A stretch of 64,000 bases of DNA from Eledone cirrhosa. Its lineage: Eukaryota. The notes under the pieces are model-generated. The model saw nothing but the letters and a program-made list of their open reading frames with translations. It searched no databases and had not been told where the DNA came from. Positions 37,851 through 38,412 of this stretch are shown piece by piece. Each line of letters starts with the position of its first letter. Position 1 is the first letter of the stretch. The stretch is taken from assembly GCA_964016885.1 (NCBI GenBank), contig OZ024754.1:38812001-38876000 (forward strand). Reading direction: 5' to 3'. The translations under genes were made by a program, and so were the position numbers.

Positions 37851-38223
37851 ACAAGTCCTCCCTAGCTGTTTTGGTGACATCAATCAATGACACATCCATG
37901 CCCTCAGTGACACATCCATGCCCTCCTTGATCACACATCCCAGGAGCCACCAAAAGTCCAGTCCTGGTGGGATTCCTGGAATGCGGACCCTGGCCGTCTT
38001 TCTACTGATGATGAAAGGCTAAAGGGAATGCTGGTGCTATGGTGTCTTTTTTCAGTTAAGCAAATTCCCTTCTTATTTACCTTATAATTCTGCTAAACCT
38101 TCAACAGGTGAATAATGTATGAAAACACAAAGAATGATCATAAATCTTAGCAGAAAGGAAACAGAAAAGAAATAGAAAAATTTTGAAATGTGGATAAAAA
38201 ACAAAACAAAAATCAAAACTTAC

Positions 38224-38229
38224 CGAGGA
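38224..38229 (-). CDS. Candidate 6-nt alternative microexon of reticulon (TCCTCG)
   Basis: Minus strand reads ttttttgtttttttatttggtatttcag|TCCTCG|gtaagt; frame-preserving in the phase-2 last intron. Confidence 0.6.
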
Positions 38230-38412
38230 CTGAAATACCAAATAAAAAAACAAAAAAGATTTATTAAAAAATAGGAATGAATTGGTGAAATAAGAAATTT
38301 AAGTAAAATGTTATGAGGTAAATTTTTGTTGAGAGGCAAAGTGTACTAAAAACTTGAAAAATCTCTTAATGTAAAGCATGATTGTAACTGCTAAGAAGTT
38401 ATTGTGTGATTG

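Follow-up and report, generated by a model that had tools for sequence, protein, structure and literature searches.

A candidate 6-nt microexon in the last reticulon intron of Eledone cirrhosa and its counterpart in an annotated Octopus bimaculoides isoform

We analysed a 64,000-nt stretch of the Eledone cirrhosa genome (contig OZ024754.1, positions 38,812,001 to 38,876,000; hereafter the window) and found in the last intron of its reticulon gene a 6-nt, frame-keeping sequence that is probably a real octopod microexon, used as a minor or tissue-restricted form. The best evidence comes from O. bimaculoides, where two annotated isoforms differ at the identical junction. In the reading that we favour with some reservation, the six bases, skipped in the four assemblies examined, would be a real alternative microexon that is likely spliced in rarely or in particular tissues, and that is predicted to kink the distal part of an amphipathic helix, which would weaken the shaping of endoplasmic reticulum (ER) tubules.

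The candidate exon and its host gene

A single reticulon locus was detected in the 3.0-Gb genome, which makes orthology simple. The O. bimaculoides orthologue carries the Reticulon homology domain (PF02453, E 4e-44), and six of its exons mapped onto the window by tblastn with one residue of the domain different (Table 1); additional 5′ exons of the gene are located outside the window. The last intron is 4,583 nt long and in phase 2. On the minus strand it contains, in this order, a T-rich tract, TTTCAG, TCCTCG and GTAAGT, precisely the arrangement that the original prediction had described, and together these form a candidate microexon (AG-TCCTCG-GTAAGT) that falls within the definition of alternative microexons as 3–27 nt long, flanked by AG and GT, and keeping the frame. 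The pyrimidine fraction of the acceptor tract was 0.80 over 25 nt, and a YTNAY match suggests a possible branch A near 38264. TCCTCG itself occurs twice on the whole minus strand of the window.

The upstream exon ends in CA (phase 2) and the last exon begins with A, and translation from the window coordinates reproduced the peptide change that had been proposed, from KILQ-Q-VQSKLP in the skip form to KILQ-HPR-VQSKLP in the included form. The surrounding island (38050-38400) matched only itself in a search of the 3.0-Gb genome in which very common words were skipped. It had been described as a unique island between a LINE relic and a minisatellite; its uniqueness and the minisatellite were confirmed, but the open reading frame at 37289-37525 on which the LINE relic would rest had no Pfam hit. 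Text similar to this frame turns up again elsewhere within the window.

Table 1. Reticulon exons and elements of the last intron (window positions)
Feature	Position	Strand	Basis
First reticulon homology domain exon	53397..53604	-	
Reticulon homology domain exon	47456..47594	-	
Reticulon homology domain exon	44468..44537	-	
Reticulon homology domain exon	43608..43654	-	
Upstream constitutive exon, VQIDNY...KILQ, first 17+ residues of predicted amphipathic helix	39541..39599	-	tblastn; spliced contigs 4/4 runs
Minisatellite, 36-bp unit, between upstream exon and candidate microexon	38413..39497	.	
3′ splice site region: CAG acceptor, U-rich tract, 114-nt AG exclusion zone	38230..38345	-	
Candidate cassette microexon TCCTCG, 6 nt, in frame, phase 2/2	38224..38229	-	sequence; O. 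bimaculoides H-P-W isoform, same junction
Microexon 5′ splice site GTAAGT	38218..38223	-	sequence
Last exon, coding part, VQSKLP...KAKAQ and stop; first base A	34909..34957	-	

Motif frequency and protein-level conservation

In a background set of 40 unrelated 10-kb stretches (789,600 strand-bases), YAG-6nt-GTAAGT occurred four times, corresponding to 0.023 per intron of 4,583-nt size, and never together with a pyrimidine tract of at least 0.72. Motifs of 3–27 nt with a GTRAGT donor and the same tract threshold numbered six, none of them with an AG-free zone of at least 100 nt, the thresholds having been chosen post hoc with the values of the candidate (0.80 pyrimidine, 114 nt) already seen. 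Within the window and 200 kb beside it, the candidate was the sole GTRAGT motif to survive all filters. Its AG-free zone measures 114 nt, compared with 38–98 nt at the six constitutive acceptors of the gene within the window. Such a motif is by itself insufficient proof of an exon, since a second frame-keeping, microexon-like motif of 12 nt (CAG...GTAAGT, window 48692-48681, minus strand), located in the intron following the first reticulon-domain exon, lacks protein support: its product, which would replace the HPF-K-EYL of the Nogo-66 loop by HPF-NEILL-EYL, was carried by none of 19 cephalopod-type proteins.

For the 6-nt candidate, protein support was found in O. bimaculoides. The predicted RefSeq model XP_014769074.1 (reticulon-1-A-like isoform X1, 293 aa) and XP_014769075.1 (291 aa) differ solely by HPW versus Q, that is, by a two-residue insertion with His-Pro-x for Gln at the junction used here, the third residue being W there and R in E. 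cirrhosa, a non-conservative difference. RefSeq alternative variants generally rest on aligned transcripts. Decoded as CA + Y-C-C-N-T-G + G, the insert agrees with TCCTCG of the window at four of five fixed positions. The Trp requires a last exon starting with G, and such a G was present in all three contigs of the related organisms A and D, versus A in the window. Conservation in other cephalopods, proposed earlier as a check on the exon, was found at the protein level in one other octopus, in this predicted model. We rejected a shifted donor or acceptor as the origin of the O. bimaculoides insert, which neither begins with GT nor ends with AG. With the microexon, an A-starting last exon yields R here and a G-starting one W in O. 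bimaculoides; the mixed combination would yield a stop codon.

Beyond this model the insert was rare. It was present in 1 of the 19 cephalopod-type proteins (XP_014769074.1), lacking in all five of the newer RefSeq isoforms retrieved for O. bimaculoides (X1-X5), and not in any other molluscan or invertebrate protein fetched. A protein search with the C-terminal region gave 29 matches and no further insert-bearing one; a search for shorter fragments with the insert gave no match. The spacing from I-D to K-L-P was exactly 21 proline-free residues in 208 of 209 scored proteins (232 collected, 23 without the motif dropped), the exception being the HPW isoform. A scan of JGI metagenomes returned 39 reticulon loci, none with more than 68% identity and hence no cephalopod among them, and the 21-residue spacing was seen in 25 of the 26 that could be scored (13 could not). 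In a reticulon transcript from a different animal (JGI contig Ga0115594_1141333), four residues are inserted at the same junction (KDIWNK-VQTM-VQQKVP); their sequence resembles a tandem duplication of approximately one helical turn, and the site may have changed independently there. At the nucleotide level, comparison of the intron island (38030-38405) with runs X23 (related organism F; contigs of ~60 nt on average), X7 and X12 gave short A-rich chance matches or none.

Transcripts, regulation and competing explanations

The sequencing-run sample comprised 24 contig sets, all lacking a tissue label and none recorded as RNA, of which four were compared at the upstream exon. In all four, the spliced contig (one per run) joined the upstream exon straight to the last exon, and the inclusion junction expected from the original prediction was not seen in these tissue-unlabelled contigs. 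Skipping is the assembled form, and probably the majority form, in the four samples. Because assembled contigs lose the weaker side of a splice bubble, and with it minor forms, this result neither shows nor excludes inclusion. Run X19, which may share its origin with the assembly, was identical in sequence to the window over the upstream exon and the island and showed skipping only; an unspliced 980-nt contig of this run spans the island at a depth of 8 without a joint, against an exon depth of 1,194. Between the window and organisms A and D, 5 of 62 aligned exon letters differed. Contigs of X7 and X12 end exactly 30 nt into the last exon, hinting at another joining path; we did not count them as inclusion, since the intron and the microexon both end in G and no fork was present at the upstream exon.

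The bilaterian neural microexons controlled by the eMIC domain (Srrm234; SRRM3/4) resemble the candidate in their tiny size, kept frame, long AG-free zone (here 114 nt) and strong donor, as characterised in the available text of two preprints (bioRxiv 10.1101/2021.02.24.432780, 10.1101/2024.09.17.613571). Features of this class that the candidate lacks are UGC between branch point and AG, a UCUC-rich tract and a CUAAY branch point. Here, no UGC lies within 100 nt upstream of the acceptor (the nearest TGC is 109 nt upstream), and CTAAY is absent from 150 nt with a tract that is U-rich rather than UCUC-rich, the latter two being Drosophila-derived features. The missing UGC leaves neural eMIC control unsupported and, together with runs that carry no tissue labels, gives no support so far to the neural regulation originally proposed. 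According to the accessible part of one preprint, UGC accompanies 74–79% of human SRRM3/4 targets without being strictly required (10.1101/2024.09.17.613571), so that its absence lowers but does not exclude membership of this class. A genome search for the eMIC domain (PF15230) had no match, with a control search equally blank. Neural enrichment of the microexon is plausible, at slightly under even chances. We consider it unlikely that the exon is an octopod neuron-specific two-codon splice switch that breaks a curvature-sensing helix and sets ER tubule curvature without the UGC/eMIC signature. The intron downstream of the microexon is rich in UG/U and UUCU words, which could presumably bind CELF, ELAV, TIA or PTB-type proteins.

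A real yet near-neutral low-level exon, kept passively since the octopod common ancestor, would agree with the skip form in all four contigs, with a third residue that is unconserved (R/W) and with an insert that 18 of the 19 cephalopod-type proteins lack. Should the distance of O. bimaculoides be similar to that of organisms A and D, passive survival of ten bases would have a probability of ~0.2 by rough estimate. Single microexon deletions are often mild in effect, as far as the available text of one study goes (PMC12626420). However, the long AG-free zone and the consensus donor persist despite heavy repeat turnover in the intron, and the frame is open in both species: the TG of O. bimaculoides followed by an A-starting exon would create a stop, where E. 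cirrhosa has CG, a weak argument from a single case. We consider passive retention rather unlikely, if a serious alternative, and incline by a narrow preference to a microexon that is functionally selected.

That nothing is spliced here at all, the motif being a chance decoy in a T-rich intron and the O. bimaculoides isoform an annotation artefact, appears improbable to us. The contigs examined contained no inclusion transcript, the 12-nt motif in the same gene shows that such arrangements can lack protein support, and the newer RefSeq isoforms retrieved do not include the HPW model; yet junction, length and His-Pro are all shared with an independently annotated species. The joint chance of the 6-nt GTAAGT motif (0.023) and a 4-of-5 match (0.018) is ~4e-4, or ~0.012 under a looser GTRAG donor null (0.64). 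Use of the acceptor without the donor would instead make an alternative terminal exon with the loss of the lysine-rich tail, and continued reading beyond the hexamer does give KILQ-HPR and then a stop. This is very improbable, as the O. bimaculoides model runs on into VQSKLP, a consensus donor follows the hexamer immediately, and the low depth over the island in X19 came with neither a splice joint nor a loose end at the acceptor.

The amphipathic helix and the predicted effect of inclusion

A real alternative microexon, as we favour, would place its insert in a helix that follows the last membrane segment. The placement within the C-terminal amphipathic helix was borne out in that structure prediction and hydrophobic moment both point to a high-moment helix at this position, as in the reticulon amphipathic helix. 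AlphaFold2 modelled the skip form (44-sequence alignment) with an unbroken helix of 25 residues (158-182), and the O. bimaculoides HPW form (43-sequence alignment), which served as the included form in place of the HPR of E. cirrhosa, with a helix of 20 residues (256-275), a break at His-Pro and a helix of 6 residues (277-282); both models are membrane-free and of modest quality (mean pLDDT 74 and 68, pTM ~0.3). In the PDB, we found only Nogo-66 fragments, none of which covers the C-terminal helix. The hydrophobic moment of the segment, calculated on the Fauchere-Pliska scale, was 0.47 for the skip form, 0.38 for HPR and 0.31 for HPW, with a homologue mean of 0.43 (sd 0.05). In a continuous helix, the distal Val and Leu, which point 7 and 47 degrees away from the hydrophobic face in the skip form, would come to lie ~153 and ~113 degrees away from it. 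The first 17 helix residues, with a moment of 0.52, are unaffected by the insert.

Inclusion is thus predicted to bend the membrane-binding helix near its distal end, at the His-Pro break, and to swing the Val and Leu of the tail helix off the hydrophobic face, leaving the C-terminal lysine tail the same in both forms. The shortened membrane-inserted helix may have a weaker curvature preference or sensing, or may allow faster diffusion, such that ER tubule shaping would be weakened and not abolished. The term switch, used originally for the effect on membrane-shaping activity, is probably too strong: the insert is situated five residues from the end of the helix, and a 17-residue amphipathic face stays intact, which makes tuning likelier than an on/off switch.

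Helices that follow the reticulon domain immediately and have a conserved hydrophobic face, as predicted here, are known from Yop1, S. japonicus Rtn1 and Arabidopsis RTNLB13. For the yeast and plant helices, the available parts of two papers report binding to curved membranes and a requirement for tubule shaping (PMC7835363, PMC7973432), and in S. japonicus Rtn1, loss or charge mutation of the helix is described as causing mislocalisation, leak to the nuclear envelope and faster diffusion (PMC7835363). The experimentally mapped reticulon/REEP helices given in the available text span 15–17 residues (PMC7973432), so the insert may sit at or past the functional core. Deletion of exon 5 from human REEP1 likewise alters the C-terminal amphipathic helix of a protein that shapes the ER by the change of an exon, there a disease deletion and here a candidate regulated insertion; as reported in the accessible text, the deletion variant keeps curvature activity and acts via lower ubiquitination (PMC12786278), and by analogy the effect of the octopus insert could be small or via turnover. 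A frame-keeping cassette exon in a reticulon gene is also known from C. elegans, where exon 5 of ret-1, with 81 nt versus 6 nt here, is tissue-regulated, being controlled by UNC-75/CELF and skipped in neurons according to the part of the source available (PMC3627589).

Our literature searches on microexons, octopus and reticulon splicing, judged from titles and abstract openings, returned no description of this exon; nor did they return a study of the XP_014769074.1 insert or a splice-regulated insertion in a reticulon/REEP C-terminal amphipathic helix. Octopus microexons were reportedly catalogued by Torres-Mendez et al. 2019. A bioRxiv study that includes octopus does not name reticulon in the available main text (10.64898/2026.09.05.749416), and the exon may be listed in either work. 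It is a 6-nt exon that an older O. bimaculoides annotation contains and the newer isoforms retrieved lack. A natural isoform pair that differs by two residues and a proline would offer a clean probe of the helix length that a metazoan reticulon needs, and the proposed mechanism, if true, would be a case of splicing that tunes ER shape in a lineage whose large nervous system evolved independently; should inclusion prove low throughout, the exon would be a minor annotation note only.

Several further observations concern the wider locus. Short exon-like motifs of 12, 15 and 6 nt lie on the gene's strand (minus) upstream of the reticulon domain, 7.4, 122 and 175 kb past the window end (positions 71376, 186378 and 239158 of the extended scan), and the reticulon isoform sets of O. 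bimaculoides and oyster contain several alternative short segments in the N-terminal region. Mirror-image AG...GTAAG motifs at 148190-148207 of the same scan, one on each strand, stem from a short near-palindrome that is likely a small inverted-repeat element. An open frame of 148 codons (39669-40115, plus strand), situated just upstream of the penultimate exon, had no Pfam hit and resembles the GIY-YIG endonuclease end of Penelope-like elements. The segments at 9239-9844 (minus), 43772-44029 (plus) and 61848-62225 (plus) of the window look like fragments that we take to be reverse-transcriptase or RTE-type LINE relics.
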